DNA from: Chiloscyllium plagiosum
Lineage: Eukaryota
NCBI RefSeq assembly: GCF_004010195.1
Contig: NC_057718.1
Location: 54,312,972 to 54,376,971 of the forward strand
Length of the DNA: 64,000 nt
Direction of reading: 5' to 3'
Shown here: piece after piece, positions 6,804 to 61,464 of the stretch
Layout: each line of letters opens with the position of its first letter
Position numbering within the stretch: the stretch's first letter is position 1
Made by a program: the position numbers and the translations under genes
The notes under the pieces: generated by a model
What the model was told of the DNA's origin: nothing
Seen by the model: only the letters and a program-made list of their open reading frames with translations
Database searches by the model: none

Positions 6804-6839
6804 ATTCCTGAAGAAGGGCTTATGCCCGAAACGTCGATT
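6804..6839 (+). ncRNA. Minimal type I hammerhead ribozyme motif in PLE pLTR
   Basis: attc-CTGAAGA-a-GGGC-ttat-GCCC-GAAAC-GTC-gatt. Core and stem II are intact; stem I is short and imperfect. Predicted cleavage after 6835. Confidence 0.75.
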
Positions 6840-8149
6840 TTCCTGTTCCCTAGATGCTGCCTGACCTGCTGCGCTTTTCCAGCAACACATTTCCAGCTCT
6901 AATTTTGACTATGGCTAATAGTGTAAACCAACAAGATTAAGATCAATTCAAATGTTTATTATACAAGTGCAATAAGAGGTACATTTAAGAGATAATGAAT
7001 TGATATACATTTTTATCACTCAACATCAAATGTAATCTCCTACCCCCAACCCTATTCTGCGGCTGATCAAAGGACAACAGATCAATCCAATGTCCTTGTG
7101 CAATGGCTGATAAAGCAGAGATGGTAAGAAAAGGAATAGTAACACAGACAATGAAACTATAATTTGAAAAACAGAAAAAGAAATTGTAGCATTTACTTGG
7201 CATAACTAATGCTTAAGGATAAATTTTATGATGTATTCTGCAGCGAGTAACTCATTTCCTGATGCCCTATCAATTGGCACCCCAGGGCTCTGTCATTTAC
7301 TCATTCAGTAGAAGATTATAGTGTAACAACTGCCAATTTTCCTTTTCTCTCTACAACAAAAACACCTAATCTTAACAAGTGCTTCCTCCATCTCTCACTA
7401 TCACTCCATAGTGCCATAATGTGACTAAAATGCGATTAAAATCAAAAAATGAATATGTAAGGATTTGTAGATGCAAGTGAAATTCCAAATAATAAGCTAA
7501 CTTTACCTATTGGACTATTGTGTGATTTTTAACTTTGCTTTAAATTGTTTCACACTTTAAATTAATTTCTACTCTTTCATAGGAAATTGTTGTTGTTGGA
7601 CTAGCTACTTACTCATCAAGGTGGTTATTCAGTGTTGCTGAATGAATTTATATTGCACTTGTCCTATTGTTGGCATCAAGCATTCCATGCATCATAGGTC
7701 AGGTTTAGCTTAAAACTCACTCCTTAGAGCTCTAGCAAAGGACCAAACTATACTTTGGAATATCAACCCTGAGGGAATCAGTATGATATTTTCATTTCCA
7801 TAAGTGACAATCTCATGAATGATATTCCTCAATGTGTTGAGTTATGAACTGTCTGTTTTTACCTCTGAAAGCTCCAGTAAGGAGCAATGTGTAAACAAAA
7901 TGTACTCCAAATAACAGTTTTATCTGTGCTTGAACCAAATTACATGCTAACAGCTGTTTCCTTTTTTAAAAAACAAATAAATATGGACACTGATGGACCG
8001 AACACTGAGCCTCCCAACCTGCCCAACATAATTGCAATACCTTGTATATTGCCAAAGTGCTTTCCAATCCTCCAAAACCATGTAATCCAGTGGTTCTCAA
8101 GAATAGATTCAAAATTATGATACTAATATCAATAGCATAATCAAGTTAT

Positions 8150-8555
8150 AGAATGGGGATAGCACAGAATGGTTTCCTGCCATTGAACCTGATTTGTCCA
8201 TGTCCAGTCTCTGCAAAAGCAACTCTGCCATTGCAGCCCCATGCTCTTTCCAAGTGGCCCAATAACATTTTTTCTCTTCACTTACTTATCTAATTCACTT
8301 TTCAAAGCCATAATTGAATTTGACTCCTGTATAATCTCTGATGGATTCTAGCCATTTTCTGCATAAAAGTACTTTTTGTTGTGCTGTCATTGCTTCATTT
8401 GTGAATCACTGAAGAGCAGTATTCATTGGTTTTCAACTCTTCTGTCAATGTGAACAGTTTAACTTTATTTAGACCACTCAAGATTTGAACTCCTCTATCA
8501 AGCCACCTCTTAACATGCTGTTCTTCCAGCAGAACAACCCTTCCTTCTCCAATCC
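8150..8555 (-). mobile_element. Old, degraded CR1 3' fragment
   Basis: Reverse-complement resemblance to CR1 3' UTR and ORF2 end (cttatctaattcacttttcaaagcc; gaacaacccttccttctccaatc). Confidence 0.55.
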
Positions 8556-8569
8556 ACAGAGATCATAGT

Positions 8570-8790
8570 TGTTAACCTGCTCCTGGGCCTGGCCAAATGA
8601 ACATTAATAAATCCAGGCATTGGGAAGTTAACAGTGATCATTCATCCCAAGTACTTAACTCTTTTCCATAGTTACATCCACACCCAGCTGTCCCTGGAGA
8701 GGAAGCTCAGTGTCCACCTGAAGCTTGAATTCAGTAGGGTCCACGAAGCTGTACGGCACTTTCAGCACCCCTAAAAAAAACAAATAGTCT
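8570..8790 (+). mobile_element. Tx1-clade (L1 group) LINE C-terminal relic
   Basis: ctgctcctgggcctggccaaa reads LLLGLAK and gtccctggagagg reads SLER, typical of Tx1 ORF2 C-termini. A T-rich UTR follows. Confidence 0.55.
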
Positions 8791-8989
8791 AATTTTGGTA
8801 TGTTTCGTTTCAAGGTTTGGTTCTGTCATGTTGTTTATCAATAGGGTTGGTTATTTAATTGTTTATTCAGTTGTTTATCTGATTGCCCAAAAACACATGT
8901 CTTCCTATTCCTGTATCTGTTTTAAAATTATAAACTTTCAGTTATTCTTCACTTACTTACTACTTGTATCATTTCACACTGCACATTTA

Positions 8990-11150
8990 TAGGAATCACA
9001 GAATTATTAAGGTGCAGAATGAGACCATTAAATTACCATGTCTGCACTTGGCTCCTAGCATGTTAACTTAGTGCTACACTCTTGTCTTTTCCCCAAAAAG
9101 TAGCACATTCTCTCTTTTTAAATAATTATCTAATGCCCTGTTGAGTGCTTCAGTTAAACCTGCCTCCATCACACTTCCAAGCAGTGTATTTCATTTCCCA
9201 ACTAATTGTTTGTGCAAAAGTTTTTCTCACTTATTTTTTCCTTCTTTGATTTTTGATCCATTTAAGTAGGACCAGTTTCTCTCTGTCCAGACCTCTCAAA
9301 GCTTTGCAAACTTCTGTCAAATATTTTCTTAGCCTTCTCATCTCTGCAGAAATAGTCCTAACTTCTTTAATCTGTCTGCCTCATTCCTGAAACCATTCTT
9401 CTGCATTCTCTTCAAAACATTCCCATATTTCCAATAGTGCGCCATTCCAAACTGTACACAATACTCCAACTGAGATGCAACAAGTGCCTTACATAAGTTC
9501 AGCATCAGTTGCTTGCTCTTGTGTTTCTGAATCTGAAGGCAGTACTTGTCTTAATGTGTTCTTAATGCCAAAGTACATCACTTCACACTTTTCTGCTTTG
9601 AACTTCATCTGCCACTTATTCGCCCACTCCATTAACATGTCAGTCTTTTGGGAGTTCTACACAGTCCTCCTCACAGTTTACAATTCTCCCAGACTTTGAA
9701 ATTTCCTTCTCCATTCCAAGATCTAGAACACTTTCTATATGTGTATGTATATATATAAAAGGTAAAGCAAGAGTTCATACACATATCCTTGAGAGGCTCC
9801 ACTACAAACCTTTTTTCCATCCCAGAAATTATTTATGAGTCATTACTTTCTGTTTCCGATCCCTCAGTCAATTTTACATTCATGTTGCTACTGCCCCTTG
9901 TTTTCCATGACCTATAACTTTCCTCACAAGTTTGTTGTGTGGCACTGAATGGGATATATTTTGGAACTACATGTATGTCACAGCATTAGACTCCCCTCAT
10001 CAAAGCTCATCTACCTCTTCAAAAAACTTTGGTAATCTTTAGACATGACTATCCCTTAATTAATCCACACTGACTCCTTCAACACATTACACATTTTCCA
10101 TCTGACTGTTAATTTTATCCCAAACAATTGTTTCTCAAAGCTTCCCCACCATTGAAATCAAACTGATTGGTCTGTTGGGCTGATCTTTGCAAGCTTTTAT
10201 GGACAAGACATCATGTTTTCAATTGCCATATTCTCTGACACAACCACTGACTCCAGGGAAGTTTGAAAAATTGTTGCCTGTGTCAGAGTTTTCACTCTCA
10301 CGTCCTTCAATATTTTTGGACCATCTCATCTGGTCCCAATATCTTACCATCTATCAGTTGCAGCTTATCCAATACTTCATCTTTATCAATTTTAAATCCA
10401 TCCGGTGACTGAGATTCCTTCTCTATCACCATGGCATGAGCAGCATCAGTCTCAAAGGTAAACACAGATGCAAAGTATTCATTCAACACTGTAGCCATGT
10501 GTCTTGCCTCTAAGTATAAATCTGCTCTCTGGTCCCTAATCAGCCCTGTTCCTTTTTTCAGGATTCTTTTACTCTTGAGTGAAACTAGGTTAGTTTGGAA
10601 AACTTGGTCATCAGCATGGATGAGTTGGACCGAAGGGTCTGTTTCCATGCTGAATGACTCTGTGTTCTAATAGAAGAATTTAAGATTTCCTCTTATGTTA
10701 ACTGCCAGTATTTTTTCATAAACCGTGTTTACTTTTTATATCTGCTTTCTCATCTCCTGCTGAACCTTTTACATTCAGCTTGGTTCTCAACTGTAATTAT
10801 GACCTGACAACTGTCACAAGTACAATTTTTCCTCTTTAACATCCTTTACATCTCCTTTGTCATCCAGTGAGCTCCAGATTTGTTTGTCCTAGCTTTCTCT
10901 TTTGAGGAAATATACCTTGACTGTGCCAAAAACCATCTCTGCTTTGAAGGTAGCCCATTGTTCAGCTATTGTATCTCCCAACAACGTTTGGTTCCATTCT
11001 ATGCGTCCCAGTTCTGTCTTATCCCATTGAAGTCTGGTCTTCACCAGTTAATTGTTCTTACTCTAGATTGACCAATATTATATTCTACCATCATCCTTAA
11101 CCTTATGATACAATGATCACTGTTTACTAAATAGTCTCCTACTATCAACT
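8990..11150 (-). mobile_element. Old CR1 LINE ORF2; heavily decayed
   Basis: ORF 10307..10648(-) contains MATVLNEYFASVFT...LGPDEM. Reversed 3' end (ataggaatcacagaat) near 8990. Confidence 0.8.
10585..10662 (+). mobile_element. Short CR1 3' UTR insertion inside the older CR1
   Basis: cagcatggatgagttggaccgaagggtctgtttccatgctg is the young CR1 3' UTR, in the opposite orientation to its host. Confidence 0.8.
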
Positions 11151-12139
11151 TGAAAACAACTGAGTTATACTAATGACATAGCTGTTAAGAGTCAACCATC
11201 TTGCTGCTGGGTACATATTCACCACGGTAGTTAAGAACACTAGATTACTAAAAAAAGAACATCTATGACAATTCAGCAGCTTTGTGGTCACCAATTCAAA
11301 TGATAGCTTTTAATTCCAGGTGTATTGTGTTAATTTAATTTAAATTCCCCAATTCCTGAACACACATCTCTGAATTGTTAGTCCAGGAGTTCTAATCTAA
11401 AAACAGAGCTGGTATGAGACATTATCCTTGAGGATATCACTGTCCATCAGGGAAGCTAATTCTGCTTGTTCTTAATTAATTTTCAGTCTTCCAGAATCAC
11501 CTTCATCCCACAGGCTGCGAGGATTCAAGTGGGTGGCCCAATATTAACTTTTCAAAACCAACTGAGAGTGGTCATCAAACGTTGGCCTTGCCAGTGATGT
11601 CTATCTCCTGAGAATTAATAAGAGCCAGGGGAACATTGATTTAAAAATTGGAAGAATAATGCATTTCTGCTGCACAAAGCAAGAAAATAGTAAACTGGAC
11701 ATAAAACTGAACATGTTTGAAATACACTTCATGTCAAACTGTCAGACTTACCTAGTTCCTTCCCACATTAGATATTGCATTGCCTAGTCAATGACTGATT
11801 TTCTGTCAATGTTTAGAAAATAAATTCAAATAGCATTTTAGAAGTCCAGATGGTATAATATATCAAAAAGCTTAACCTATATAAAAACAATGCTTCTACT
11901 CTTGTCTAATCTGTAGTCAAATTACTTCCACAGAATTTCAGGAACATCTTCAGTATGCACAGGGTAAAATCTGACCATTTATAAGTAGCTGGAATTTTAC
12001 AACTTAAAAAAGTGCAAAATCACATTGCTTATTTGTGGTCTGTAAACGGAGGATATTGTATGTGTGAATGGAGTGTACAATCAGGTTTTCCCTTTATAGT
12101 ATTTCAAATAAGTCAACCCTGCAAATGATAGTTAAGTCT

Positions 12140-12515
12140 TCTTTACAAGGGATCTACATCTGCCTTTGTTCTTCTAGATAGAAGTGGTGCTGTTTAAGGA
12201 TCTTTGGAGAATTTATGCAGTGCATCTTGTAGATAGTAACCCCTGCTGCTACTGAATTGGTGGTAGAGGGAGTGGATGTTTGTGGATGTAGTGCCAATAA
12301 AGCAACCTGCTTTGTCCTGAACGGTGTCAAGCCTCTTGAGTGTTGTTTGAACTGCACTCATCCAGGCAAATGTGGAGTCTTCAATTATACACCTCTTTGG
12401 AGAGTCAGGAGGTGGGTTTGTCATTGCAGTATTCCTAGTGTCTGACCTGTTCTTGTAGCTATTGTGTTTATGTGACAAGTCCAGTTTAGCTTCTGGTCAA
12501 TGATAATCCCAAGAG
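12140..12515 (-). mobile_element. CR1/L2-group LINE fragment, same family as 33620-35800 and 42290-42818
   Basis: ORF 12194..12478(-) reads AWMSAVQTTLKRLDTVQDKAGCFIG; homologous to 35330-35560(+). Confidence 0.75.
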
Positions 12516-12772
12516 TTCTAGCAACCCCTGTGACTTTGTATGATATGTTGAAGAATTTCACTGGGCCATGCCCAGGTTACTCACAATTTCCTAGAACAGC
12601 AAAGATGTGAGATTTGAATCCTAGTCATACTGGATCTCAGTGCAGATTATATCCTGTGAAGAAATAAATCAGTTTTGGCTGAAACAGTTTTCAGGAAAAC
12701 AAATGACCTCTGGGAAATGGATAGTCACGCTTATGATGAGAAGGATATGCTAATGGCCCCCTTTTCTTTTAG

Positions 12773-14897: not shown

Positions 14898-14914
14898 TGA
14901 ATAAAAGCAATTAT

Positions 14915-20659: not shown

Positions 20660-20790
20660 TGTTGTGATTTGGAGGTTCTGGTGTTGGACTGGGGTAGACA
20701 TAGTCAGAAATCAGACCACACCAGGTTACAGTTCAACAGGTTTATTTGAAATCACAAACTTTCGGAGTGCTACTCCTTCATCAGGTGAAA
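20660..20790 (-). mobile_element. Solo PLE pLTR (GGAG-stem family) with hammerhead motif at 20752-20788
   Basis: Minus strand reads TCAC-CTGATGA-a-GGAG-tagca-CTCC-GAAA-GTTT-GTGA, with a perfect 4-bp stem I and 4-bp stem II. Homologous to 22975-23098 and 40116-40326. Confidence 0.75.
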
Positions 20791-22740: not shown

Positions 22741-23215
22741 GAATCACAGAATCATAGAATCAAATGATACAAAAGAGGCCCTTTGACCAACATCAACAAC
22801 CACCACTACCACCTCCCTCCCCCTGGGCCTGACAGACAGTCCATACCCCTCACCCTCCTCTGAGTGAAAAATATTTTCCTCAAGTCCCCTCTAAAGCTCC
22901 TGCCTTTCACTTTAAAATTATGCCCCCTAGTTACTGACCCTTCAACTGAGGGGAACAGCTGCTTCAATTCACTCTTTTGGAGGAGCCAGTGTTGGACGGG
23001 GTGAACAAAGTTAAAAATCACACAACACCAGGTTATCGTCCAACAGGTTTATTTGGAAGCACTAACTTTCGGAGCGCTGCTCCTTCATCAGGTGGTTCCC
23101 CCCCTTCAACCTTCTCTGCATCAAAGAAAACAACCTTATCCAGTCTCACTTCACAGCTGAAATGTTCCATTCCAGGCAATATCCTGATGAATCTGTTTTG
23201 CATCCCAACCTGTGT
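22741..23215 (-). mobile_element. CR1 3' fragment interrupted by a PLE pLTR
   Basis: QLFPSVEGSVTRGHNFKVKGRSFRGDLRKIFFTQ and QNRFIRILPGMEHFS lie on either side of 22975-23098. Confidence 0.8.
22975..23098 (-). mobile_element. Solo PLE pLTR with hammerhead motif at 23060-23094
   Basis: Minus strand reads CAC-CTGATGA-a-GGAGC-agc-GCTCC-GAAA-GTTA-GTG. Confidence 0.8.
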
Positions 23216-27135: not shown

Positions 27136-27189
27136 AATTAGAGAAGAAACTCACTAGCATCTAGAACTCAGTAAAATACTCAGTTATAA

Positions 27190-27860
27190 ATAAAATAAAG
27201 AACTGAGGATGCTTGAGTTCTGGAACAAAATCAGGAAGTGCTGGACAAGCTCAGCAGCAAGAGCAGAGCAAAAAACAGAGTTAATGTTTTGAGTCCAGTG
27301 ACCCTTTGTTAGAACTGAAAGCGGCTAAGAAATTATGGTATTTATGCTGATGGGACTGAAAGGGTGGTAGAAATGTGTAGAATACAAGGTTTTGGAAATG
27401 GATGAAGGGGTCTGTGGACTAGGGAGTGTTCTCCTGTCCAAAGAAATGGAGGCCGAGAGAAAAACTACAGAAGGAGAGTTTGACATCATGCCAGTGGAGG
27501 AAATTCATTGAAGTGGAGGGATAAAAGGATAAAATTAAGTCCTTAGCACAGATTGTTCAGTATCTGAGAACGAAAGGTCAGAGGGTAAGGTAAATACCTG
27601 ACAAGGGGTGGGGTTAGGGGAAGAGATAGAGTCAGGAAGAGGGGGAGGGGAGGAATATTTCTTAGGGGTATTGATACTTCCAAGTTATTGAAGCTTGGAT
27701 CCCTTAATACCTAAATGGAATAGAGGAAGCTTCTTGTTAAAACATTGAACAAGGAGAAGAATGAAGTGGAACTGAGGTTCCGGTCAGCTTTGACATAGCA
27801 TGAGGCAATGCTGATAGAGAGAGAGTTAGACATTGTGCATGTGGTTGTGCATAACATTGA
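27190..27860 (-). mobile_element. Old PLE 3' end (ORF C-terminus, C-rich UTR, pLTR with decayed hammerhead)
   Basis: Minus strand at 27277-27317 reads cagttctaacaaagggtcactggactcaaaacattaactc, a decayed version of the motif at 35232-35268. Confidence 0.55.
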
Positions 27861-28834
27861 GTGTGGATCTCAAAATGTGACAAGAATAGCTGTTCAAAGA
27901 GAAGTGTACATCAGAGAGTTACCTGTTATCTCACTTATAAATAAGAGCAAACATAGATAATCCATATGAAAGCAATAACAGAAAACTACTTTTGGTATCC
28001 AAACATTAATAGAAGTATTGAAAAATTAATGAAAAATGTGATGTGTTTCTCTGAAGAAGAAATGATCTATCCAAAGTGCCTTCTATTCTACAGTCAAACA
28101 CAAAATAAAAGCATGGAAAGACATACTTGTCAATTTATTGAAGGGAAACAGCACCTTATTTGGTCAATGGCAAGACCAAATCGATACGTGTTAAATCTAT
28201 GTTCAATAACACAAGTGCTAAACTATTGAAATTGTGAGAAGTTGGATCGCAAATTTGTGGGTTTTCAGGGATGTTAGTGTTAGATAATGAAAGTTTATAT
28301 CAGAAGAGCTTGAAGTATTTCTGAGTATGAACTGAGTCACTTTCTCACATCGCCATATCATCCAGTATCAAATGGTGCTGCAGAAAAATACAGATTGTGA
28401 AGTGGTCTTTGAACAGGTATTTACTACACAACTAGCAAGGCAATAACTCCCATACTTTCCTTTGATACAGATACAGGATCTGCTCCTGTTCACAAGCTAT
28501 GAACTATAATCAACAAAACAGGTTCACTTTTGACATACTACACTTCCAGACCAGTATTCTATTTACACAAAACATATCATTCATCTTTTTTAATGGAATT
28601 TAACTTCAGTTTCACATTAATTCTTTGCTTAATTGGGCAGATGTAGTAATGTGATTTTAGTGAGAGGCTGTAGATTAATATGAATCACACTGTTTTGTGA
28701 CAAGAATTCAAAACCAGCAGCAAAAGCTACAAGCATCAAACGATTCTTTACCATCCAAGGACACACAGCAAAGGAGTGTATTTAAACCAAAACTAAAGAA
28801 AACTGGAAGCAAGGACAAAGTATCTATAAAGGCA

Positions 28835-29067
28835 GAGTGGAGACTGTGATGCTGGGAAAGCACAGCAGGTCAGGCAGCACCCGAGGAGCAGGAAGATGGA
28901 CCATGTCGAGCATAAGCCCTTCATCAGGACCGAAACTGCCACACAGCAACCAGCTTATGCCTGAAACATCGATTCTCCTGCTCCTCGAATGCTGCCTGGT
29001 CTGCTGTGCTTTTCCAGCACCACACTCACTCTGATCTCCAGCATCTGTAGTCCTCACTTTCTCCTAT
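28835..29067. mobile_element. Inverted pair of PLE pLTRs (GGGC-stem family)
   Basis: 28848-28895 is the reverse complement of about 28975-29022. Decayed hammerhead on the minus strand (ctgatgaagggcttatgctcgac) and a partial one on the plus strand (gcttatgcctgaaacatc). Confidence 0.8.
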
Positions 29068-30039
29068 CCATGATACCTGCCAAGAGATAGCAAGGAGTAC
29101 TTACATTCTTGTTTTTGAGCACATAGTAATCCTAATGTACACCTGTCTATATACTTGGAAACCTATGAATCATGAATTGAACAAAGATAGACTTTGTCTT
29201 ATATTTTTTAATAAAAGATTTCTGTTATTAATATAAGCTAATTAAACTTTGCATTACATTTTTTGTAAAAATACAAGTGAAAATAAATTACTATTCTATT
29301 CTATCTTGTGTATGCAATCACTTGATGTCTAACTATCTATTGCCATGGTTTTTAGTCGTGTCTTTATGTCGAGGTTTAGCTTTGAAAATGATAAATTATC
29401 AATTCCTCATAGCTGGGCTTCTAAGCAAAGGAGTGCTTTGGTACAAGCCCAGTTAGTATATTTACCTTTTTGTTTTGCATTATTGATTGAGTGCAAAAAT
29501 CTGCACTATCCATGATTTTTTTCAGTACTAGTGCCTTTATGCATACTCACCAAGTTAGGAATTTACAAAATTCATGACCTTGAAGAAAATGTTAAAAATG
29601 TCTAAAAAAGAAATAATTAAACAAGTGAGTATGTATATATTTTCAGAATAAGTGTAGATATATACAGGGGGAAAAATAGGCAGCAAGTGGTTTACTGAAA
29701 AATAAACTGATCTGTACACAGAGCTATTTGTGTGTTCTTGCTCCGAACAACCACGGCTACAATTCATTAGCTGCAAAGCACATTAGAATTCCCTGAGCAC
29801 ATCAATGGTATTGCTTTTCTTCCTTTATTTCTGAATTCTATCCAATATTCCCTCTAAGCTGCCTGAGAATACTGCGACACAGCAATCAGGAATGTACCAC
29901 ACTGTACAACAAACAGGCCACGCAGTACCAATGTTCCATTAAAGAGCTTTGTATGTATAGCCACACAGCAATCTTGAACATACCACACTGTGCAATAAAA
30001 AGACCATGCACAGCAAAGAACAATTGAAGAGTACTTTGA

Positions 30040-31034: not shown

Positions 31035-31130
31035 ATGAGTCATAGAGTCAGAGAGATATACAGCACAGACCCTTTGGTCCAACTCATCCATGCCAAGCAG
31101 ATATCCCAACCTATTCTAGTCCCATTTGCT
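31035..31130 (-). mobile_element. CR1 3' UTR fragment, joined head-to-head with the next CR1
   Basis: gagtcatagagtc...ggtccaactcatccatgcc...gatatcccaacc is a reversed CR1 3' end. Confidence 0.85.
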
Positions 31131-31486
31131 TGGAGCATCGGAGGCTGAGAGGTGTCCTTAGAGAGGTTTACAAAACCATGAAGGACATGGATAGGGTAAA
31201 TAGAGAAGGTCTTTTCCTTCGGATGGGGAAGTCTAGACCTCGAGGGCATAGGTTTAGGGTGAGAGGGAAAAGATATAAAAGAGACCTAAGTGGCAACTTT
31301 TACACGCAGAGGGTGGTGTGTGTATGGAATGAGCTGCCAGAGGCAGTGGCGAAGGCTAGTACAATTGCAACATTTAAAAGGTATCTGCATTGGTATATGA
31401 ATAGGAAGGGGTTGGGATATCTGGTCGGCATGGATGAGTTGGACCGAAGGGTCTATTTCCGTGCTGTACGTCTCTATGACTCTATG
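31131..31486 (+). mobile_element. CR1 3' fragment
   Basis: ORF 31130..31489 reads EHRRLRGVLREVYK...RGHRFRVRG...YTQRVVCVWNELP; tail tctatgactctatg. Confidence 0.92.
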
Positions 31487-31489
31487 TAG

Positions 31490-32882
31490 TAGGACTCCTG
31501 AGTCAGCATGGACTCGAACTCCCGGCCTCAGCATAAACTCGAACTCCCGGCCTCAGCGTGAAGTCGAACTCCCGGCCTCAGCGTGGACACGAACTCCCGG
31601 CTTCGGCGTGGACTCAAACTCCCGGCCTCGGCGTGAACTCGAACTCCCGGCCTCGGCATGGACTCAAACTCCCGGCCTCGGCGTGGACTCAAACTCCTGG
31701 CCTCAGCGTGAACTTGAACTCCCGGCCTCGGTGTGAACTCGAACTCCCAGCCTCGGTGTGAACTCGAACTCCCGGCCTCGGTGTGAACTCGAACTCCCGG
31801 CCTCAGCGTGGACTCGAACTCCCAGCCTCGGCGTGGATTCAAACTCCCGGACTCGGCGTGGACTCGAACTCCCAGTCTCGGCGTGGACTCGAATTCCCGG
31901 ACTCGGCGTGGACTCGAACCCCCGGCCTCGGCATGGACTCGAACTCCCGGCCTCAGCGTAAACACGAACTCCCAGCCTCAGCGTGGACACGAACGCCCAG
32001 CCTCAGCGTGAACACGAACGCCCAGCCTCGGCATGGACTCGAACTCCTGGCCTCAGCGTGGACTCGAACTCCTGGCCTCGGCATGGACTCGAACTCCCGG
32101 CCTCAGCGTGGACACGAACCCCCGGCCTCAATGTGGACACGAACTCCCGGCCTCGGCATGGACTCGAACTCCCGGACTCGGCATGGACTCGAACTCCCGG
32201 CCTCAGCGTGGATACGAACCCCCGGCCTCGGCATGGACTCAAACTCCCGGCCTCAGCGTAAACTCGAACTCCCAGCCTCAGCGTGGACACGAACGCCCAG
32301 CCTCGGCATGGACTCAAACTCCCGGCCTCAGCATGGACTCGAATTCCTGGCCTCAGCTTGGACTCGAACTCCCGGCCTCAGCATGGACACGAACCCCCAG
32401 CCTCGGCGTGGACTCGAACTCCCGGCCTCGGCATGGACACGAACCCCCGGCCTCAATGTGGACACGAACTCCCGGCCTCGGCATGGACTCGAACTCCCGG
32501 ACTCGGCATGGACTCGAACTCCCGGCCTCAGCGTGGACACGAACCCCCGGCCTTAGCGTGGACTCAAACTCCCGGCCTCAGCGTGAACTCGAACTCCCGG
32601 CCTCAGCGTGGATTTGAACTCTTGGCCTTAACAGGGACATGTCTCCCAGCACTCTGGGACACAAGGTGAAACCCGGTGTGGTCTGGGTTGAAAGGACTGT
32701 TAATACATGTCTCTATCTTCATAATTTATCGCTGGACTTTTAATTTCTTTATTTTTCTCATTTTTGTCCCTAAGAATTTGTACTTAAGAATCTAAGATGG
32801 CACCATAAGTGACAACCTATAAACCTTTCACTGTACTTATGTGAGTACATGTGACAATAAAGCAAATTCTAAAATTCTAAAA
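31490..32882 (+). mobile_element. Non-autonomous retroelement with an internal VNTR and a Rex1/Babar-type 3' tail
   Basis: The 3' end tttcactgtactt...tacatgtgacaataaa(aattcta)n resembles the Rex1 end at 37837-37888. 32733-32880 is homologous to the reverse complement of 53253-53420. Confidence 0.65.
31504..32628. repeat. 25-bp CpG-rich minisatellite, about 45 copies, consensus GGACTCGAACTCCCGGCCTCRGCRT
   Basis: Directly visible 25-nt period. Most variants are CpG transitions. It explains all the overlapping 25-aa-periodic ORFs. Confidence 0.98.
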
Positions 32883-34364: not shown

Positions 34365-34467
34365 ACTCCAAAACAGAAAATGCTGGAAAATCTCAGCAGG
34401 TCTGGCAGCATCTGTAAGGAGAGAAAAGAGCTGACGTTTTGAATCTAACTGACCCTTTGTCAAAGCT
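34365..34467 (-). mobile_element. PLE pLTR relic with decayed hammerhead
   Basis: Minus strand reads agctttgacaaagggtcagttagattcaaaacgtcagctc...gatgctgccagacctgctgagattttccagcattttctgttt. Confidence 0.6.
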
Positions 34468-35228: not shown

Positions 35229-35330
35229 CTGTTCTGATGAAGGGTCACTGAACTCAAATGTTAACTTTGTTTTCGCTCTTCAGATGCAACTAAACCTACT
35301 GAATTTCTCCAGCACCTTTTGGTTTTGTCT
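35229..35330 (+). mobile_element. PLE pLTR relic with partly decayed hammerhead
   Basis: GTT-CTGATGA-a-GGGTC-actg-AACTC-AAATGTT-AAC. Stem I (GTT/AAC) is kept; GAAAC is mutated. Confidence 0.6.
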
Positions 35331-37099
35331 CAAGAAAATTAAAACCATCTAGAACAAAACAGGCTGCTTGATTGACACCTCTTCAACCATCGTAAATATT
35401 GATTTTTCTCTAATGTCTTTTTGTCTAATGTACACAATGGCAATAGTGTACACCATATACAAGATGCACTGTAACAATTCACTTCACCTCTTTTAACAGA
35501 ACCTCCAAATGCACACACTCTATCACCTAGAAGGACAAGGCAGAATGGAAATGCTACAACCTGCAAGTTCTTCTTCAAGCTTTGTATTATTGGACTCAGA
35601 AATATCTCATCATCGCTTTTCTGACATTGAGTCAGTATTCTGAATTCGTTTTCGAACAATGCGATAGGTATATCTATGGCAGATGGACTGCAGCAGTTTG
35701 AGAAGGCGGCTCACCACCAGCTACCCCAGGGCAATTGATGACAGACAACAAATGCTGGTCCTGTCAGCGATGCTCATATTCCATGACTGAATTATTTTAA
35801 AACTGACAAATGGAGCATTCCCTAAAGGTGCTCTAACTGCATTCTTCCCCCAAGTGCCTGAAGTCTTTCCAACAGATGTTGCAGATACTGAATGCTGCTC
35901 AGCAATAATCAGAAGAAAATCCCTATCCTATTACATTGAATACCAATTTACCACTCCAAGAAGCCAAACTAAATTCTCTCCAGTTCATGTTCGTTAAGCC
36001 TCCTGGACCTTATTGGTAACCCTGATTAATCACAATCACAGAACAGTTCATATGAATCTGTGGTCACGTTGGATCACCACACAGCAACTAGCAGATTATC
36101 TTTAGCCTTGCTTTATTGTCTCACCAGACAATGAATTCATAGGGCTGCTGAATTAGCTATCTCCAAGAGTTAATTTTATTGAGGATAAAGCTCCTATAAT
36201 AATCCTAATTAAACTTCACCCATGCTCAGAGGGTCACAGTTATTATAATGAATGGCTTGCAAGTAATGAGATTGCACTTCTCTTTAATATTTAAATCAGA
36301 CAAAGCAAACTTAAGGAAGTCCACCAAACTATTAATGTGGGACATGTTGTTTCACTAAGTAAATTTATCATCAAAATGTTTAATCCAGGCACAAGTAAAT
36401 ACTGCTCAGTTTTGATATGTCTAACAAAGTATCCTGGATACTTTGTCGGATTTATGAAAATTATGATGCATTGTTTACCTTTTTTTATTTTACCTATTTA
36501 CTACAGGAAATTAATGTTTGCTTTTATGTACATATTTCCATTGTATAGCCATTAAGCTGTAGTATTATGTTTAATTTAATCTGTTATGCAATTATGCTTT
36601 TATAGTTTAAATAGATAATATTGGATTAATTTTGTATGTATCCATGGGTGTAAGTTTAAATAAATAATCTTTCTTCTTAATAATAGTGATTAGCATGCAA
36701 TGATCCATGTGCCATGACGCTATGACTCTATGAGCATGTATTATATTTTTATGCAATGCCCTTTAAGACAAAGCAGACTGGAGTTTATCCTTAAAGAGAG
36801 TTAATTGGCTTCCCAATTTCATTAGATTCCAAGGAATCCCAGTTCATTTGGATTTGCCATGTGCAGGATCAAATAAGAAGCAAAGAGTAAGTAGAAAGCT
36901 AATAACCGTGGAATTGGGATTACATTGCGCTTTCCATCTGGGAGTTCAGAACACAATGAAAATTTGTGTGGAAAAGAACACTCTCCAAATGAAGTAGTTT
37001 TGTCTTTGGTAATTTTAGAAAAGATCCTGCTACTGAAGCAGTGCAATGAGACTAGAACAGAAACTGTGCTACGTTGTCTTTTTTACAGGTGGAAATAAT

Positions 37100-37888
37100 G
37101 AAATACTAAATACCTGAAGGACAATGATAACAACCTTTCTCTCAATGTTGGCAAAAGAAAAGAACTGGTCATTAACTTCAAGAAGAAAGGAGGTGAACCA
37201 GCCTCCAACTATTTGCGAAAGTTGAGATGGTTGAGAGTGTCAAGTTCCTAGGAGTGACAATAACCAACAATCCATCATGGACTTCATACGTAGATGCAAT
37301 AGTTAAGAAAGCACAACAATGCCTCCTCTTCCATAGGGGGCAGCTTAGGAAATTTGGCAAGTCCATAAGGATCATCTCCATCCTTTACAGGTGCACCATA
37401 AGAGCATACTATCCTGGTGCACAACAGCCTGGTATGACAACTGCTCTGGCCAGGACGATAAGAAACTACAGAAGATTGTGTGCTCAGCACAGACTATTAC
37501 GGAAGCCAGCCTTCCATCCATGGACTCCATTTATACTTCTTGTTGCCGCAGAAAAGGTGTCCACATCGTCAAAGACCCCTCCCACCCTGGTGTTGCTCTC
37601 CTACTACATTTTGCGTCAGGCAGAAGATACAACACGATCAAGAACAGCTTCTTCCCTGCCTTTATTAGACTGATGAATGGACTTTCTAACTCCTGATAAT
37701 ATTGATCTTGTTAATGTTGATCGTGCTTCGCGCATCTCCTGTGCAGTGTAACCTGGATGCCTCACTTTGTCTATGCACTCTATGATCTGTGTGTCCTTAC
37801 TTGCTGTGATATGCCTATACTGCTCACAAACAAAGCTTTTCACTGTACTTAGGTACACATGACTACAATAAATCAAATCAAATCAAAC
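37100..37888 (+). mobile_element. Rex1/Babar LINE 3' end
   Basis: DNDNNLSLNVGK, VESVKFLGVTITNNPSWTSYVDAIVKKAQQ, SILSWCTTAWYDNCS, IVKDPSHPG; tail caataaatcaaatcaaatcaaa. Confidence 0.92.
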
Positions 37889-40107: not shown

Positions 40108-40115
40108 TCTATGAC

Positions 40116-40326
40116 AGTCATGATTCGGAGATTCCGGTGTTGGACTGGGATGTACAAAGTTAAAAATCACACAACACCAGGTTATAGTCCAACAGGTTTA
40201 ATTGGAAGCACACTAGCTTTTGGAGCGACGCTCCTTCATCAGGTGATGAAGGAGCGTCGCTCCAAAAGCTAGTGTGCTTCCAATTAAACCTGCTGGACTA
40301 TAACCTGGTGTTGTGTGATTTTTAAT
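40116..40326. mobile_element. Palindromic PLE pLTR insertion: 82-bp arms, 2-bp spacer, 12-bp TSD
   Basis: Arms 40160-40241 and 40244-40325 differ at one position. TTTATCTATGAC is duplicated at 40104-40115 and 40327-40338. Confidence 0.92.
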
Positions 40327-41144
40327 TTTATCTATGACTGCTGCCTGAACCATTGGGAGTTTGCAGCATTTTGTGTTTTTAGTTTAGACTTCCAGCATCT
40401 GCATTTTGTTTTTGTGCAGAATTTAGGAGAGAGGTCCTTGCTATGTTGCTTGTTCAGTAACTATGAAGAATCGTGCCCATGAGGGCTTTGCTGCAGGATA
40501 TTTTTCAATAAGCACAACAAATGATTTAACTACAGCTCTTTGTTATAAGTTCTGCACTCAATTGCTTGGTATCTGACAAAGAGGCCTCATGAGTAAGCTG
40601 GTCCTGTGTTGAGAATTCCTCTGGGTGCCGATCCTGTGGGTTGTGACCATCTGAAATGTCAATGATTGACAAGGTGATCAGCACAATGATAGCTCAGGGA
40701 ATTAAATTTGCAGCTGACAATGGAACAGTTAGCACTGAATAATAAGTCTGTTTATTGTTCTGTGTTCCAAAAGATGTTTTTTTTTGCAGCAACTGTCTTT
40801 TTAACTCCTCTGAGCTCACATCAAACAAGCCGCAATACATTTTTTCTGAGAGATTTTATGGAGATGGAGAAGATGCAATCAGGAATATGGAGGCTCTGGA
40901 CTCGTAAGTCTAAGCCAGCAGTTTGAGGGGGTTTGGCATGGAGTGGTGTAGAGGGCATAGAGGATTGGGGCAGGGAAAAGTCTGACATTTGAGCGTGGTG
41001 GGTGAATGATAAGAATAGTCAGTCAATTTTTGAAAAAGATGAACTAAAGGGTCGGAACAATACTGTTAATATGTGGGTTCATCTCAGCATGTTGGTTAGT
41101 AAAGTAAGTACAGTGCTCTGAGTTCACGCTATCATTCCTATCAG

Positions 41145-42818: not shown

Positions 42819-42859
42819 GAGGTCTGAAGTCGCCATAAAGGTTCTTCAGTCCATCAAGT

Positions 42860-46260: not shown

Positions 46261-46261
46261 A

Positions 46262-53803: not shown

Positions 53804-54009
53804 CAATCAGAAAATTTGGAGATTAAAGCAACAGATTTCAAAATCACTAACATAGACACTTCTAAAGTATCAGAAATTTGCATTACGGACAACAAAGGTA
53901 AGTATTTAAAATGCTATTTGCTCCAACTCATTGAGGCAATTCTTAAAATAGCTGTAATACCGAAGCCATTAGTAAATAGCATAAATGGAGGTTCTTCAAT
54001 CTATTAAAA

Positions 54010-54408: not shown

Positions 54409-54457
54409 AATATGGTGAGAGGGTGTAGGTTTGCTCGCTGAGCTGTAGGTTTGATAT

Positions 54458-54497
54458 CCAGACGTTTCATTACCTGGCTAGGTTACATCATCAGTGG
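54458..54497 (-). ncRNA. Hammerhead ribozyme motif in the inverted pLTR
   Basis: Minus strand reads CCA-CTGATGA-tg-TAACCT-agcc-AGGTAA-t-GAAAC-GTC-TGG; stem I CCA/TGG and a GUC triplet. Confidence 0.78.
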
Positions 54498-55205
54498 CGA
54501 CCTCCAAGTGAAGCGAAGCTGTTGTCTCCTGCTTTCTATTTATATCTTTCTCCGATATTTCGGAAAACAGAGGAGAACCACCTATACAACATATTCAAGA
54601 AGAACGGATACTCAAATAATACAGTGCGCAGATTCCTCAAGAACAAACCACGACAAGCAGACCAAACACAGCCAGAAACCCTAACCACCTTACCATACAT
54701 CAAAGAAGTTTCAGAAATGACAGCCAGACTACTAAGGCCCCTCGGAATCCGAGTAGCACACAAACCCGCCAACACTCTCAAACAAAAACAAACAAACTTA
54801 AAAGACCCAGTACAACCCATGGACAAAACCAACATCATCTACAAAATTCCATGCAAGGACTGCCACAAACACTACATAGGACAAACAGGAAGAAAGTTAG
54901 CCACCAGGATACATGAACACCAGCTAGCCGCAAAAAGACATGACCCTCTCTCCCTCATAGCCCTACACACGGATGAAAAAAAAACACCATTTCAACTGGG
55001 ACAACACATCTATCCTGGGACAGGCTAAGCAAAGTCATGCCAGAGAATTCCTAGAGGCCTGGCACTCCAACCACAACGCCATAAACAAACGCATAGATCT
55101 ACAAACGAACAGGAAATGACATCACCACAAACCCCAGGAACCCCATCCAGGAGAAAGATATAAATAGAAAGCAGGAGACAACAGCTTCGCTTCACTTGGA
55201 GGTCC

Positions 55206-55245
55206 CCACTGATGATGTTACCTAGCCAGGTAATGAAACATCTGG
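55206..55245 (+). ncRNA. Hammerhead ribozyme motif in the 3' pLTR
   Basis: CCA-CTGATGA-tg-TTACCT-agcc-AGGTAA-t-GAAAC-ATC-TGG; perfect 6-bp stem II; GUC has become AUC by CpG decay. Confidence 0.75.
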
Positions 55246-57084
55246 ATATCAAACCTACAGCTCAGCGAGCAAACCTACACCCTAAACCTCAACCTGAGCT
55301 ACAAACCTTCACAAACCTTGCAAAAAATATGGTGAGAATTATGTTATGGGAAGCCAAATGCTATATCAGCAGTTTCAATGATCTGGCATGAATTTCAACC
55401 CCTCAGCTGTACTACTTTTGTAAAATGTCAACCTCTTACCTTTTGTTTGAAAATTTGGAATTTAAAACTTGACTTTTTTATGAGCATATATGGTATGCAT
55501 TTGGACAGCAGAAGATAGGAAAATAGCAAGGAAAAAATAAGAATGTCAACTCTGGAGGTGATAACGGTAGGATCCACACAAATGGATACCAGCACCATTA
55601 GAGAAATATTTGGTCCTAAAAGATTCTTGAAGTTGATTCACATGATGAAAAACCAGACTTCTTGGACAACTATTGTTAGCAGACACCTATTATATATTTA
55701 TGGATTATAATCAAGTGACACTGCAGTTGTTTAAGCACATGTATGGGTCTCAAGAATCTTTGAAAAGTGCATGAAGCCGTGGGACAGGTGCCAATATCCA
55801 ACTTGACTAGGACTCTCACACAGAGAGTATTTCAGACCTTCACCGATTAAAGTATTTCACTATAAATATTTTATGGACAACAAATTGAAAAATTGTGATT
55901 GTTTGATTGTAAAACAGATCTTTTTGTGCATTTAAAAACATTGGAGATCACTCTTTATGTATATTATAGAAGAGCAGCCAGTTAAATGTGGCAGGCAAAA
56001 CACGACCTTGCCATTCACTTTATTATAAATAGATTGCATTGTGCATTAAATTGCCCTTTTTATAATTTATGACAGAATTTGTAATATCAAATGCGTATTT
56101 AAACACTTATGATGCATTACATACCACTGAGTAATACAAATACAGTATTTCCCAGCACCACTCTGTGCTCCAGTCTATGTAATAGATCCATTAGAATTAT
56201 AATGACATTTGTCTGCATGCCCTCTAAGGGAAAATTCATAATTGTTATATTTTCAAGGTAGAAAATAATTGACTGGTTTCATCTAGTGTAATCCAAACTA
56301 CCTTCTACATGAATATATTAAACAAAACATGTCTCAGACAGTAAATTAGCTCAAAGCAGAATCAAAGAATGTTTGTAGCACAGAGGATGCCATGCTGCAT
56401 GTTGCTAATACTCAGCCAGAGAAATTTGGCTCATGTCGCTAGTCAGTCCTTTTCTGCACCTTGTTTTTTATTTATGAATATCCAATTTCCTTTGGTAAAC
56501 AGCAGTTGAATTCACCACCACTACTATTTCAGGCAATGTGTTCCAGAATACAATCACTTGCTGCAAAAACAAAATTCCTCACATCATTTTTGGTTCATCT
56601 GTCAATCATTTTAAATCTGTCTCCCTTGGGGTCTGAGCCACTCTCCAACAGGGGAACACGTTTTCTCCATCTACCCTGCATGTACCCTAAGTGCCTGACT
56701 TGTAAATCAAATTAAGGTGCTTGGGATTAAAGATAGAATGGCAGCAGGGAAATGAAAAGGATAAAGTGGAAGTAGAGGTAAACTATTTTTTTTAACTGGA
56801 AGGATACACATAGTGCTAAACTCCAATTATCAGTATTACCATGTTCTTTTTGATATAGATTAATGACACGAACATTGGAATGCAGGGTATCATTACAATA
56901 TTAAGGGCATGAAACTTGGAGACATGATATAGAAAGAGGGGGGGTAACACCAGACTTCCGAAGGACATCTGAAGACTGGTGAAGTGGCTGGATACATGGC
57001 AAATCAAATTTAATTGAGAGTCTGATGAAGTGATACATTCAGCTCAAATGACAAGAAGCAATGGACGCAAACAGTATTTAGATA

Positions 57085-57231
57085 AAAACAATGACTGCAG
57101 ATGCTGGAAACCAGATTCTGGATTAGTGGTGATGGAAGAGCACAGCAGTTCAGGCAGCATCCGAGGAGCAGTAAAATCGGAAGGGCTTTTGCCCGAAATA
57201 TCGATTTTACTGCTCCTCAGATGCTGCCTGA
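57085..57231. mobile_element. Fold-back PLE pLTR pair, with 30-bp arms around hammerhead stem II
   Basis: Arms 57150-57179 and 57202-57231 (one mismatch) enclose gaaGGGCttttGCCCGAAAtat. Confidence 0.85.
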
Positions 57232-58934
57232 TCAGTATCTGCTGAGCGCACACTGCATTTGTGAAAGTAAATTCTAAACATCTCCCATCATTTGTGTGAA
57301 AAGAAATGATACCTGAATACCCTCCTGAAAACTTTGCTGTAATTTTTTACTAGTCCTAGGCTCCCTATGTTTGGCGATTCAACACCATGAATTACAATTG
57401 ATGCAATCTCACACTAAATTCAACAACTTTATTTAGAATATTTAACAAAACATTTTTGATTAAATTATTCAGGTTGTCAGGCTGTAAGCCGCTTAGGAGT
57501 TATCTTTGACCAAGACCTTCTTACTTGGTTCATCAGGACTCTCTTGTCAATACATAGTTTATTTTCCATGAATTACCCTTTAGATAATCTGACTAAAATT
57601 ATTTTAAATCACTCAGGAGGGATCCTTGACGAAGATCTTGTTGTTTGGTTCACTGAGTCTCTTCCTTTCGATACGTATTTTCATCTTTTAAATGCTGTCC
57701 TCCTCACAAATCTTCTGTTGTCCCTTCTTAAGAATTGTTGTGTAGGACTTCCTGTGAAGTTCAGAACAATGCAGACTTGTTTGTATAAGCATGTCGATCT
57801 CTGCTTTCTGTCCATGGGGAAAGGACCGCCCAACCTGACTAAGTAACCTACACAAGCAAGGAGTCATCACTTAACCACGGGGCCAGCCAGGAATTTCCAT
57901 TAGCCATGTCAGCAGCATGTCTCACTATATCAAGACTACACCAAGAGTGATGGGCTGAAGGGTCAGAGATTTCTTGCAGATCTTAACAGTACTGCTAAAG
58001 AGATCTGACAGCCCTCTAACTATTGTGCAAGCGCATCTAACTATCAGCTAATAAAGCATTTTCCATTTCAATCCTCGTCATTGGTCAGTGACTGGTCATC
58101 CACTCTGTCTACCAGGCATGACATGACTGACCAGCATGAGATTGCTCCAGAACTGAGAGGCAAAGGAAGATGGTCGTCACCAACCACATCTAATGCAACC
58201 TTCTCCTTCCTGTTGGGCTGTGCAAATTCCTGGCTGTGGAAGTTAAATAAATGTCATTACAGAACTAAAGTTAGCACCTTACAATGATAAAATATTTTAT
58301 TGTAAAATACAAGCTAGCAAAATCCTTAAGCATATTAATTACGTAATGGTCTCTTGTAAGAAATGTGAAATAGTTGCAACCTGGCATTTACTTAACACAG
58401 AATTTGTGAGGTTTTCAACTCATTGTTAATTGTATTCTCAAATGTAAGCCCTATACCAGTTGTCAATCTCGTTCCACAGTTATGGGTAGTTTCTTTCTTA
58501 AGAACACACAAAATTTGAATCAGCTACTTAACAGTAAGATCCTGGGATGGTGTTCATGCTTACAGACAGATCTATACCACTTCATTTGGAATAACATGCA
58601 CATCTAGCAGGAGATCTAGGCATGTCCACCATTCCTAATGTTTCATGTAGTTTAAAAACAGAGAATTTCCAGATATCTTTCACAGATTGTGCCGCACATC
58701 ATCTTCTAACAATTTAAGGAATAATTTGCAATGGGATAGGTGACAGATTTCAGTAAAACATTAGTAAAATATATTTTTAAGTCATCAGTGTGTGGAACAC
58801 TGACAACTTATTGTGGTACTGAGGACATTCATATTGAAACCAGTTCATACTCCTCTATATTGAGTAACGGCCTGATTACAAATTTGTTTTGCAAGAACAT
58901 CAAATTTCACAGGCAACAAGAATTTATACTTTTT

Positions 58935-59830
58935 TGGAAGCAAGTGCTGATTGGTTTGCAAATGAACTCTGATTGGTAGAAACATTCCTCTGGAGAATGT
59001 ACCAGTTAATTGCCAGACTTCTGTTTAGATTCAACGCTGATTGGTCAAGGTATTCTGCTGATGCTGCTTTACACTCTATCATATCTACAACTTGTTTTAC
59101 AACCAGCTCTAACTGAGTTTTCCACATACACAATGGAGGATCCCTTCACTTCCATGAAGTTCATATAGGACTTGCATATTAACGGCAATGCTGTGTCTAT
59201 GCACTAATTCAAAGTTATAAACCTATTCACTGATATACTAGTCAGAGAAACCATCGACATTTGTACCATATGAATGGCAATCTTGATACAGTGCCATTTC
59301 TGAATCTGTACTCGTTGAAGTTTTGAACTTAGCAATTTGCAGAAGTAGGTTCAATTTTGGCAACACTATCTATGCTCAAGTAAATAGTGTCTCCATAGGA
59401 TCATCTCTAGGACCAATCTCATGAGCAACTTTGTCAGATTCCATACAGAGACACACCCTCTCACCTCTCACCTGTTGCTTATTTCTGAAGGGGCGATGAT
59501 ATTTTGTCTTTATTTGATTCTGCAGTTGCGTATAAGAATTAATGAGCTCCATCCTGCACTAAAATCCACCTTTGAAACACAGTTTTCTTTCCTCAATGGA
59601 CTAGTTACAAATCCATTATTGGATTTTCTACCACTATCTACCTCAAACCTACCATCTCAGATCTGTATACATGTTGAGATTCCTACAGTTCCTAACACCA
59701 TAAGATTGGCCTTATCGCCAATGTCAGAAATGATCTTAGACCACAATGCAAGCTTGATGACAAGCATCCAGGTTGTCCTACAGGATAATGGCTACCCCGA
59801 TCAAATCATTTCTAACTATACAATGTCTAA
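58935..59830 (+). mobile_element. Old PLE RT relic with an inverted pLTR at its 5' end
   Basis: YAQVNSVSIGSSLGP near 59371-59415 (Q..GVAMGSPLGP motif), plus INELHPALKSTFE and VLQDNGYPDQII in ORF 59421..60173. Confidence 0.65.
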
Positions 59831-60736
59831 GATGAGTATATATATAATGAGTTTAAAACCACCAAATCAGTCCTGTAAAGACCTCTCTGCAAAATCTAGC
59901 ATGTTTACTCATGCTATCACCCCGAACGTACCTCATCTAGCACACCCTTCCCTTTTGTCCAATTCTAGCCTGATTCTCCCTCTCGCTGTAGACGGATGTA
60001 CACACTACTGCCTGGACTTCCCAGGATATACCTGCCATCCCAGCTTTGACACCATATGTTCAAAGGTCATTGTGTACTTACTCAAGCACTGGCTGTCTGG
60101 AGTTGCCCTGCATGTTTGTAGACATCTTCTCAGCCATGCCTGGGGCAAGAGGAATTGGCATCCTGCTTTGTAGACAGGGACCTTGAGGTTCTGGTTCACA
60201 GGCTTGTAAAGAGGACAGTGATTCTCTTCCCAGAGGAGGCCATGTCACAGTCCCTACTATCCTGGTCTGAGGTCATCACTCGGGTCAGTATTGGTCTCCA
60301 TGTTCCAGAGAAATGCCTAGAAGTGCAAGCATGTGATAAATGACCTTTTCCACTCCATCATGGTAAGCGTCACAAACTTTGCTGAGATACCTCATACTAT
60401 CTCTGCAACTGCACCCAGCTCCTACCCAGGCACATGGTCTGCCACTCTCACTATAGAATGCAATATCTTCACTCACTTACTCTCACTCTCCCAAACCCGT
60501 CCACACTAACTCTGCATGCCATGCCCTCTGTGCTGCCTGCTCCTTCACCAAGGACACCTCAGCCCTAAGTGCAACAGCACTAACTGCCTTGCTATTCACT
60601 TTCATCTCACTCAAATCCTCCCTTTATCTCTCATTCCAGGAGAAAATAGCCCACAGGAGGGCCTGAAGTGCCAGAATGGATGCTTTGAGGAGAGGATCTT
60701 GGTGCTGGCTAGTGTTGGAGCTCAGCAATAGCCGGC

Positions 60737-61464
60737 TGTGATTATTGGCTTGTACAGAGGGGAGAAGAGCCAATTCTTTCGTAATTCACAAGTCACTTTA
60801 TTAATATATTAGACAATACACATGCAGCTTTATACGCTTTATCGCAAACTAGAACCTATTTGTACACCCATTAGGGTCCTCTGACACTCCTTGAGTAGTC
60901 ACAGAATATAAGAGCTAATAGGAGAAAGTGAAGACTGCAGATGCTGGAGATCAGAGCTGAAAATGTGTTGCTGGAAAAGCGCAGCAGGTCAGGCAGCATC
61001 CAAGGAGCAGGAGAATCGACGTTTCGGGCATGATCCCTTCTTCAGCATATAAGAGCTAACACCCGAGCAGGATAGTCACTGGTGCTGACAAGGGCTGACG
61101 CTCCAGACGCTCCGTTCCCTCTCTCTCTTTCTCTCTCTGATGTCGTCACCACATCCTTGACGCAGGGTCTGCTTTCCCGATGGTTGGTCTCTGGAGTTTT
61201 CGCTGGCTCCACACTCAAGTCTTCTTCTTATATTTTCCCTTATTTCCTTCAAGCCGTCCTGTCTCTTTCCCATTGGCTCAGGCTCGTTTGCCTTTACCTT
61301 ATTGGCCCTGGCCCAGGGACTTGGTAATATTACCTCATAATTCTATGTCTAAATAAGGCTTTTGTATTACTTTGCCTTCCTTGCTTTGCACAGAACTTAG
61401 TTGGTACAAACAGGATTCAATCAACCCAGACCAGCAGCTAGACTAAGGACATTCTTAGATCACA
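60737..61464 (-). mobile_element. Solo LTR
   Basis: Ends TGTGAT...ATCACA. On the minus strand, CCAAT (61301-05, 61272-76), ATATAA (61228-33) and AATAAA (60797-802) fall in U3-R-U5 order. No clean TSD. Confidence 0.6.
60919..61046 (-). mobile_element. Solo PLE pLTR with hammerhead core; 13-bp TSD
   Basis: Minus strand reads CTGAAGA-a-GGGA-tcat-GCCC-GAAAC-GTC-gattc. ATATAAGAGCTAA is duplicated at 60906-60918 and 61047-61059. Same family as 6801-6896. Confidence 0.9.

Follow-up and report, generated by a model that had tools for sequence, protein, structure and literature searches.

Minimal hammerhead ribozymes in the end repeats of Penelope-like elements of Chiloscyllium plagiosum, a likely record of RNA copied uncut and sometimes cut

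A 64,000-nt stretch of Chiloscyllium plagiosum DNA (RefSeq assembly GCF_004010195.1, contig NC_057718.1, forward-strand positions 54,312,972 to 54,376,971) is scattered with minimal hammerhead ribozyme motifs lying in remains of Penelope-like elements (PLEs). "The window" below means this whole stretch, and positions count from its first letter. The locus raises the questions of what these motifs are, where their copies begin and whether the ribozyme ever cuts in the cell. An original prediction, made from the letters alone, had described about 12 dispersed copies in at least three PLE families and had inferred a very large genomic load, some of which could cut host RNA. We propose, with a probability of roughly three in four, that the motifs belong to the end repeats of several PLE families, that the hammerhead forms the first 30–40 nt of a capped RNA, that the short genomic copies are mostly run-off cDNA of uncut RNA, and that a minority of the elements' own RNA is cut.

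Results

Minimal hammerheads of Penelope-like elements in the window

Mapping of the window with real family copies gave 15 end repeats, one arm being without a core; they are distributed over 11 insertions that represent four families (A, B, C, and D). The expectation of at least three families therefore held, whereas the count of about 12 copies did not. The motifs at 54458 and 55206 bound a single insertion, one on either side. All of the supposed decayed copies, near 27277, 28900, 34430, 35232, 40211, and 57181, proved to be family members, but those near 28900, 40211, and 57181 are twins and not single copies. Outward-facing pairs of ends were present in four insertions (28833-29068, 40113-40331, 54420-55326, and 57080-57231), and no tandem hammerhead units were seen among the mapped insertions of the window. 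Two more hammerhead families, E (loci L135, L154, and L175) and F (L116, L187, and L225), were found elsewhere in the genome.

A strict descriptor, comprising the core, a stem II of at least 4 bp, UH, and a stem I of at least 2 bp, matched the window four times compared with two matches in total over 50 Markov controls. The motif density of the window is far above chance. All six motifs that had been said to keep CUGANGA, stem II, and GAAA were located where predicted, each with the extra base, but every element is kept in only three of them (6804, 20752, and 23060). The motif at 6804 is intact with a weak stem I (2 bp, U-U, 1 bp), and those at 20752 and 23060 are intact with an AGUU segment that pairs via G-U wobbles only. 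The motif at 54458 has an A-A mismatch within stem II, that at 55206 has lost its palindrome (ACAU), and at 61014 the 5′ strand of stem I is missing and stem II contains a mismatch.

The strict descriptor was also applied to a sample chosen regardless of motif, made up of 140 pieces of 10 kb (20 of which lie next to the window) that were drawn from eight large contigs and amount to 1.34 Mb once N is excluded. It returned 76 strict hits, compared with 0–2 in five controls. The descriptor made no provision for the extra base after A9 (9/10.1), yet all 76 hits have one. The predicted lack of helix III was likewise confirmed, with a two-base insert in 75 of the 76 hits and a self-complementary segment in 69. 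The commonest stem I and stem II pairs differ between families A, B, C, D, and F and remain paired, with a U-U in stem I of family A, in agreement with the proposed covariation around a fixed core; the family labels relied on stem II, and stem I is the independent part of this evidence. The catalytic core is conserved in six families with unrelated stems, and stem II is just 4–5 bp in families A, B, and D. The GTT/AAC stem I pair listed in the original prediction belongs to family D, of which the window holds no intact copy. A canonical type I hammerhead, with helix III and the loop–loop contacts that Rfam scores, was not found: no hammerhead family matched the window at E ≤ 5, and the Rfam check that had been suggested would have overlooked these motifs. 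Minimum-energy structures of monomers and of co-folds retained stem II, and none showed an active dimer.

A reverse transcriptase (RT) fragment precedes the family A motif at 6804. Other family A copies, as read from locus L150, have upstream a CX4CxxC linker with a GIY-YIG region, the mark of the Neptune clade (PMC8557442). Family C was assigned to the Penelope/Poseidon type because its GIY-YIG region is without the CX4CxxC linker. Endonuclease matches at most 600 nt upstream of motifs numbered 12 in family A, 19 in C, 2 in F, 3 in E, and 1 in D, those of D and E being weaker, and in A, C, and F the motifs are in sense orientation and 3′-terminal to the PLE bodies. The statement that PLE terminal repeats carry such motifs was thus borne out, family A lying 3′ of a Neptune-type and family C 3′ of a Poseidon-type open reading frame (ORF). 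Judged by their sequence, the motifs are minimal hammerheads of PLE pseudo-long terminal repeats (pLTRs), as described for metazoans by Cervera and de la Peña (2014, PMC4209133). They share with those the core, the extra base after A9, the palindromic 15.2-16.2 segment, and the lack of helix III, as well as the occurrence in the pLTRs of many families per genome, mostly as single motifs with some opposite-strand pairs. The motif class, the single copies, and the opposite-strand pairs are already published.

Copies begin at a likely transcription start

Copies were anchored 3′ of the predicted cut and aligned to body-attached references. From the 1.34 Mb sample, 169 family A copies were taken, and 6 ending at N were left out (n = 163). 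Forty copies ended at positions −5 to −3 before the core, with a peak at −4, 34 ran upstream past position −40, 2 ended between −40 and −14, and 3 ended at the cut. A start of the copies at the cut site was rejected on these numbers (3/163 versus 40/163). Two family A copies that do start at the cut (L286 and L299) have direct host repeats of more than 30 bp, compared with the usual 7–15 bp.

Position −4, which lies 30–32 nt behind a conserved TTATCT, coincides with the A in the Initiator-like sequence TCATTCC; in family B, a TATAAA lies 38–40 nt before the core. Among copies without a template C, the base before the inferred +1 was G in 64, A in 20, and T in 16 for family A (first 100 of 7,180) and G in 86, A in 4, and T in 10 for family B (first 100 of 725), tallies made by eye against an expected G share of 26%. 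The control position, one base further upstream, gave 24 G, 21 A, and 55 C (first 100 of 3,522) and no G excess. The G stands 4 nt before the core in family A and 8 nt in family B; it tracks the TATA spacing and falls at TATA+30 in both. The flanks of the G-copies are unrelated or fold-back. An origin of the family B G from an internal repeat of the element or from a subfamily was considered and rejected, as at 15 loci the 12 G-copies are bordered by unrelated or fold-back sequence and the 2 T-copies are body-attached. In contigs of two public runs, joints lead back to 6804 with a G ahead. The joints from 6835–6861 back to 6804 behind G make short tandem copies of the RNA front end.

Reverse transcriptases add C opposite a cap. 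The extra G is likely a copy of the mRNA cap. On the simplest reading, which agrees with the in vitro behavior of the Anolis protein (PMC11167929), the transcript is capped, starts with the ribozyme, and is reverse transcribed without having been cut, uncut RNA being the probable usual template. That the copies likely begin at a transcription start just upstream of the core, and not at the cut, had been overlooked in the original prediction.

Twin insertions have one long and one short arm

An inverted partner was joined to 67 of the 163 family A ends. Across all loci examined, exactly one arm was long and tail-bearing in 69 of 75 family A twins and in 20 of 21 family B twins. The copy ends form a pattern of two RT start sites about 35 nt apart, some 90–130 nt downstream. 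One-sided tails and inverted copies were already known (PMC8557442), and two internal RT starts with extension of both strands have been described in vitro (PMC11167929). A twin would thus represent one RNA primed twice.

U6 fusions mark the predicted cut

In an Rfam search for U6, 48 of 453,147 candidates were scored, giving 45 loci, and 5 of these were U6–PLE fusions. In four of them (L322, L338, L348, and L355), the U6 T tract is joined to family A exactly at the predicted cut; in L350, U6 is joined to family F within a T run, consistent with the predicted cut. None of the five lies at the start site, though ordinary ends are more than 10 times commoner there, and the chance of four fusions at the cut is about 1e-7 at the 3/163 rate. 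No sequence is common to U6 and family A at the fusion bond, and both twin arms carry the U6 junction in L338, L348, and L350. At L348, partial copies of U6, some in tandem and some inverted, also lie within a single family A twin insertion that has a target duplication.

RtcB ligates U6>P to 5′-OH RNA (PMC6789731). Because a 5′-OH is the end that a hammerhead leaves, RtcB ligation to the cut end fits these fusions. The fusions are therefore likely to record ligation to a ribozyme-cut end, and the ribozyme likely cuts sometimes in living cells. In the published U6/LINE-1 chimeras attributed to RtcB (LINE, long interspersed element; Moldovan et al. 2019, PMC6789731), the U6 T-tract end is similarly joined to a 5′-truncated retroelement, but junction positions differ among the L1 chimeras, whose nuclease is undefined, whereas here the junction is a single bond that equals the predicted ribozyme cut. 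Among the other U6 loci, joins to tRNA-like sequence were noted at L320, L327, L328, L331, L336, L339-L346, L349, L352, and L358-L360, and U6 is followed directly by tRNA-like sequence in L323.

Proposed cycle and its alternatives

In the cycle that we propose, an RNA polymerase II promoter within the repeat (TATA or TATA-like box at −30) would start the RNA 4 nt (family A) or 8 nt (family B) before the core. Reverse transcription from the two internal starts, by a mechanism that published experiments in vitro suggest, would on the 5′-most repeat continue off the cap and place a C opposite it, leaving short inserts that open with G. Priming from both target strands would yield head-to-head twins of unequal arms, one long and the other short. 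The ribozyme may sometimes cut, in protein-bound RNA or between two repeats of one transcript. RtcB would be the likely ligase of the resulting 5′-OH end, which could occasionally be joined to U6 and plausibly also to the cut 3′ end of the element itself, giving circles that could regenerate tandems. The dispersed copies would be by-products.

Several observations weigh against this proposal. No direct RNA 5′ ends were seen in the sequencing runs. The family B ends (n = 49) are scattered over −12 to −3 without a peak, and no PLE ORF was tied to this family, two weak endonuclease matches upstream of its motifs not being counted. Most family C and F copies reach further upstream, and the 152 family C copies have no clear start peak, with 32 G versus 26 A at TATA+30 (first 100). 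Among family A G-copies for which a target duplication was found, the G is also present in the target in 6 of 8; microhomology therefore plays a part, and the G cannot be untemplated in every copy. As for the cut, the 3′ end of U6 is joined to the 5′ head of one tRNA-like repeat, presumably a short interspersed element (SINE), in about 18 of the 45 loci, each time at a different junction, so end-to-end jumps without a 5′-OH may exist. Genome-wide, ordinary junctions at the cut number 195, versus 110 and 111 at the neighboring bases; this 1.8-fold excess was not used as support because the cut product and the capped start share 5 letters and mimicry is possible.

The Gs shared with the target and the missing family C peak would also fit an RT stop at the folded ribozyme or at a bound protein, with the G an ordinary untemplated or microhomology base and not a cap copy, and the peak does sit at the 5′ strand of stem I. 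We regard this explanation as unlikely in view of the G placed 4 nt before the core in one family and 8 nt in the other, at TATA+30 in both, of the C that the element template has at this place, and of the base one position upstream, which has no G excess.

It is quite unlikely that the ribozyme never cuts in vivo, the U6 junctions arising by sequence-guided template switching and the motif being kept as a protein-binding or promoter element. RNA-seq of Anolis without ends at the cut and the dispensability of cleavage in vitro (PMC11167929) speak for it, as does the weak stem I of the largest family. However, four of four family A fusions fall on one bond without sequence common to U6 and the element, a fusion of a second family is consistent with its cut, and the core is kept in six families with unrelated stems.

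The short copies might instead be independent SINE-like elements with their own masters, either retrozyme monomers or non-autonomous PLE derivatives. Many solo copies of 90–130 bp do have target duplications, family D has almost no common upstream body in 20 loci, and retrozymes have been proposed to derive from pLTRs (bioRxiv 10.64898/2026.07.22.740005). Those non-LTR retrozymes resemble the present copies in their pLTR-related type I hammerheads and dispersed monomers, but they are defined as tandem repeats, whereas the copies here are solo or head-to-head. Such an origin is very unlikely, as the short copies are without the −30 box, their variants are also found on body-attached copies in families A and B, and tandem arrays are rare.

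Genomic load and host RNA

Exact patterns covering the core and stem II matched the genome 83,528 times for family A, 19,711 for B, 3,617 for C, and 266 for D, or 107,122 times in sum, with 0 matches for each reversed pattern used as a control. The strict hits in the 1.34 Mb sample extrapolate to about 190,000 motifs genome-wide (Poisson range 150,000–240,000), so the inferred very large load was confirmed. For comparison, 4,000 motifs in coelacanth and 9,000 in Xenopus were called "remarkable" (PMC4209133); the strict-motif load here is about 20 times that published vertebrate maximum, with descriptors that differ. The load is most likely inert debris.

The further inference that these motifs cut host RNA was not supported. 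Only 6 of the 76 strict motifs have a same-strand strict neighbor within 1 kb; hammerhead monomers were inactive in vitro (PMC4209133), and one of nine Xenopus dimers cleaved (bioRxiv 10.64898/2026.07.22.740005). In a single-cell polyA run, 1,388 of 13.0 million reads fell on the family A end and crossed the site on both strands; 96% of these continue into other sequence and no site gathers many ends, in a type of library that is ill suited to reveal a pile-up at the cut. The motifs are thus transcribed as passengers. Cutting of host RNA is possible but unsupported. That intronic or read-through motifs pair and cut host transcripts to a degree that matters, for which the size of the load, the reads running through both strands, and the cut ends recorded by U6 could be cited, is most improbable given the inactive monomers, the weak dimers, the few same-strand neighbors, the lack of an end pile-up, and the formation of the U6 fusions on RNA that PLE protein copied.

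Features of the window

The features are listed in Table 1. A Pfam scan of the window yielded for the PLEs only a sub-threshold GIY-YIG match in the family C body (E 0.0015, below cut-off), and the family A RT fragment was unmatched. The Rfam microRNA matches in the window correspond to the hairpins of the twin insertions. A decayed Neptune-type linker and endonuclease fragment lies at 62985-63299 (−), with no end repeat mapped adjacent to it. A CR1-like RT fragment (31041-31486) is flanked by inverted repeats (arms 31041-31116 and 31405-31486), and a tandem repeat at 31401-32669 has open frames on both strands. The ORF at 37197-37673 (+) has a weak Pfam ALKBH8_N match (E 0.00038, below cut-off) and is probably a LINE RT tail.

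Table 1. Insertions and motifs mapped in the window; a point in the strand column marks a head-to-head twin
Feature	Position	Strand	Details
5′-truncated family A (Neptune-type) PLE	5308..6903	+	RT fragment 5308-5745, N gap, 3′ pseudo-LTR; sequence and family mapping
TATA-like TTATCT	6774..6779	+	30 nt upstream of inferred +1; sequence; spacing −30/−30/−32 in three subfamily references
Family A minimal hammerhead	6804..6839	+	inferred start 6804 (Initiator-like TCATTCC), C3 at 6808, predicted cut after 6835
Family B solo end repeat	20665..20788	−	start ~4 nt before core; predicted cut after 20756
Family B solo end repeat	22976..23097	−	start 6 nt before core behind G run; predicted cut after 23063
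Family D end repeat	27189..27318	−	decayed
Family A head-to-head twin	28833..29068	.	decayed; short arm 28833-28929 (−), long arm 28953-29068 (+)
Family D end repeat	34370..34457	−	decayed
Family D end repeat	35232..35333	+	decayed
Family B head-to-head twin	40113..40331	.	pivot at core; long arm (−), short arm (+); both GAAA mutated; target duplication ~12 bp
Family C (Penelope/Poseidon-type) 5′-truncated PLE	54420..55326	+	endonuclease-coding body
Family C PLE, inverted short end repeat	54420-54553		motif 54458-54497
Family C PLE, direct long end repeat	55150-55326		motif 55206-55245; TATA box at 55159
Family A twin	57080..57231	.	(−) arm starts at predicted cut or one base before; (+) arm starts within core
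Family A solo end repeat	60915..61045	−	start at C3 behind one G not in target; 13 bp target duplication

Discussion

The closest experimental counterpart is the Anolis Poseidon PLE studied in vitro (Frangieh et al. 2024, PMC11167929). There, too, two internal RT starts give the tail and both strands are extended, and the hammerhead lies near the ORF start; uncut RNA is the main substrate, and cleavage is protein-assisted. In contrast, no RNA ends at the cut were found in that study, whereas here U6 fusions mark it, and the genomic copies add the cap-like G and the rule of one long and one short twin arm. Inverted terminal copies, a 30–40 bp tail at one end, and a promoter internal to the pLTR are also features of the elements described by Craig et al. 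(2021, PMC8557442) and of Penelope of D. virilis (Schostak et al. 2008, PMC2377424). The D. virilis element, however, relies on an internal promoter without a TATA box, and an intron precedes its ribozyme, whereas here a TATA or TATA-like box lies upstream and the ribozyme stands at the very 5′ end. In the text available for PMC4209133, copy ends were not mapped to a start site and cut-site fusions were not reported. The literature searched, which consisted mostly of open-access main texts without supplements, held no match for motif numbers on this scale, for a start marked by a cap, or for U6 fused at the cut site.

A bolder scheme, which we offer tentatively and consider less probable than its negation, would be a switch between two fates of one PLE RNA. 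RNA that stays capped and uncut would be translated and copied by a protein dimer that begins at two internal sites, leaving hundreds of thousands of cap-marked strong-stop inserts, whereas a protein-licensed cut would shed the capped leader, after which RtcB would close unit-length circles and catch U6 by accident. If true, the circles would be the long-sought route to tandem pLTRs, and the fusions would document, for the first time in vivo, that animal minimal hammerheads cleave.

Evidence on cutting in vivo, and on its purpose, matters for the minimal hammerheads of animal PLEs, whose cleavage in vitro is very weak and which left no cut ends in Anolis RNA. The genome of C. plagiosum supplies exact positions for a likely start site, two RT starts, and a predicted cut site in several families, together with fusions that would mark the cut. 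With these exact coordinates and fusions, the PLE cycle becomes testable with short RNAs.

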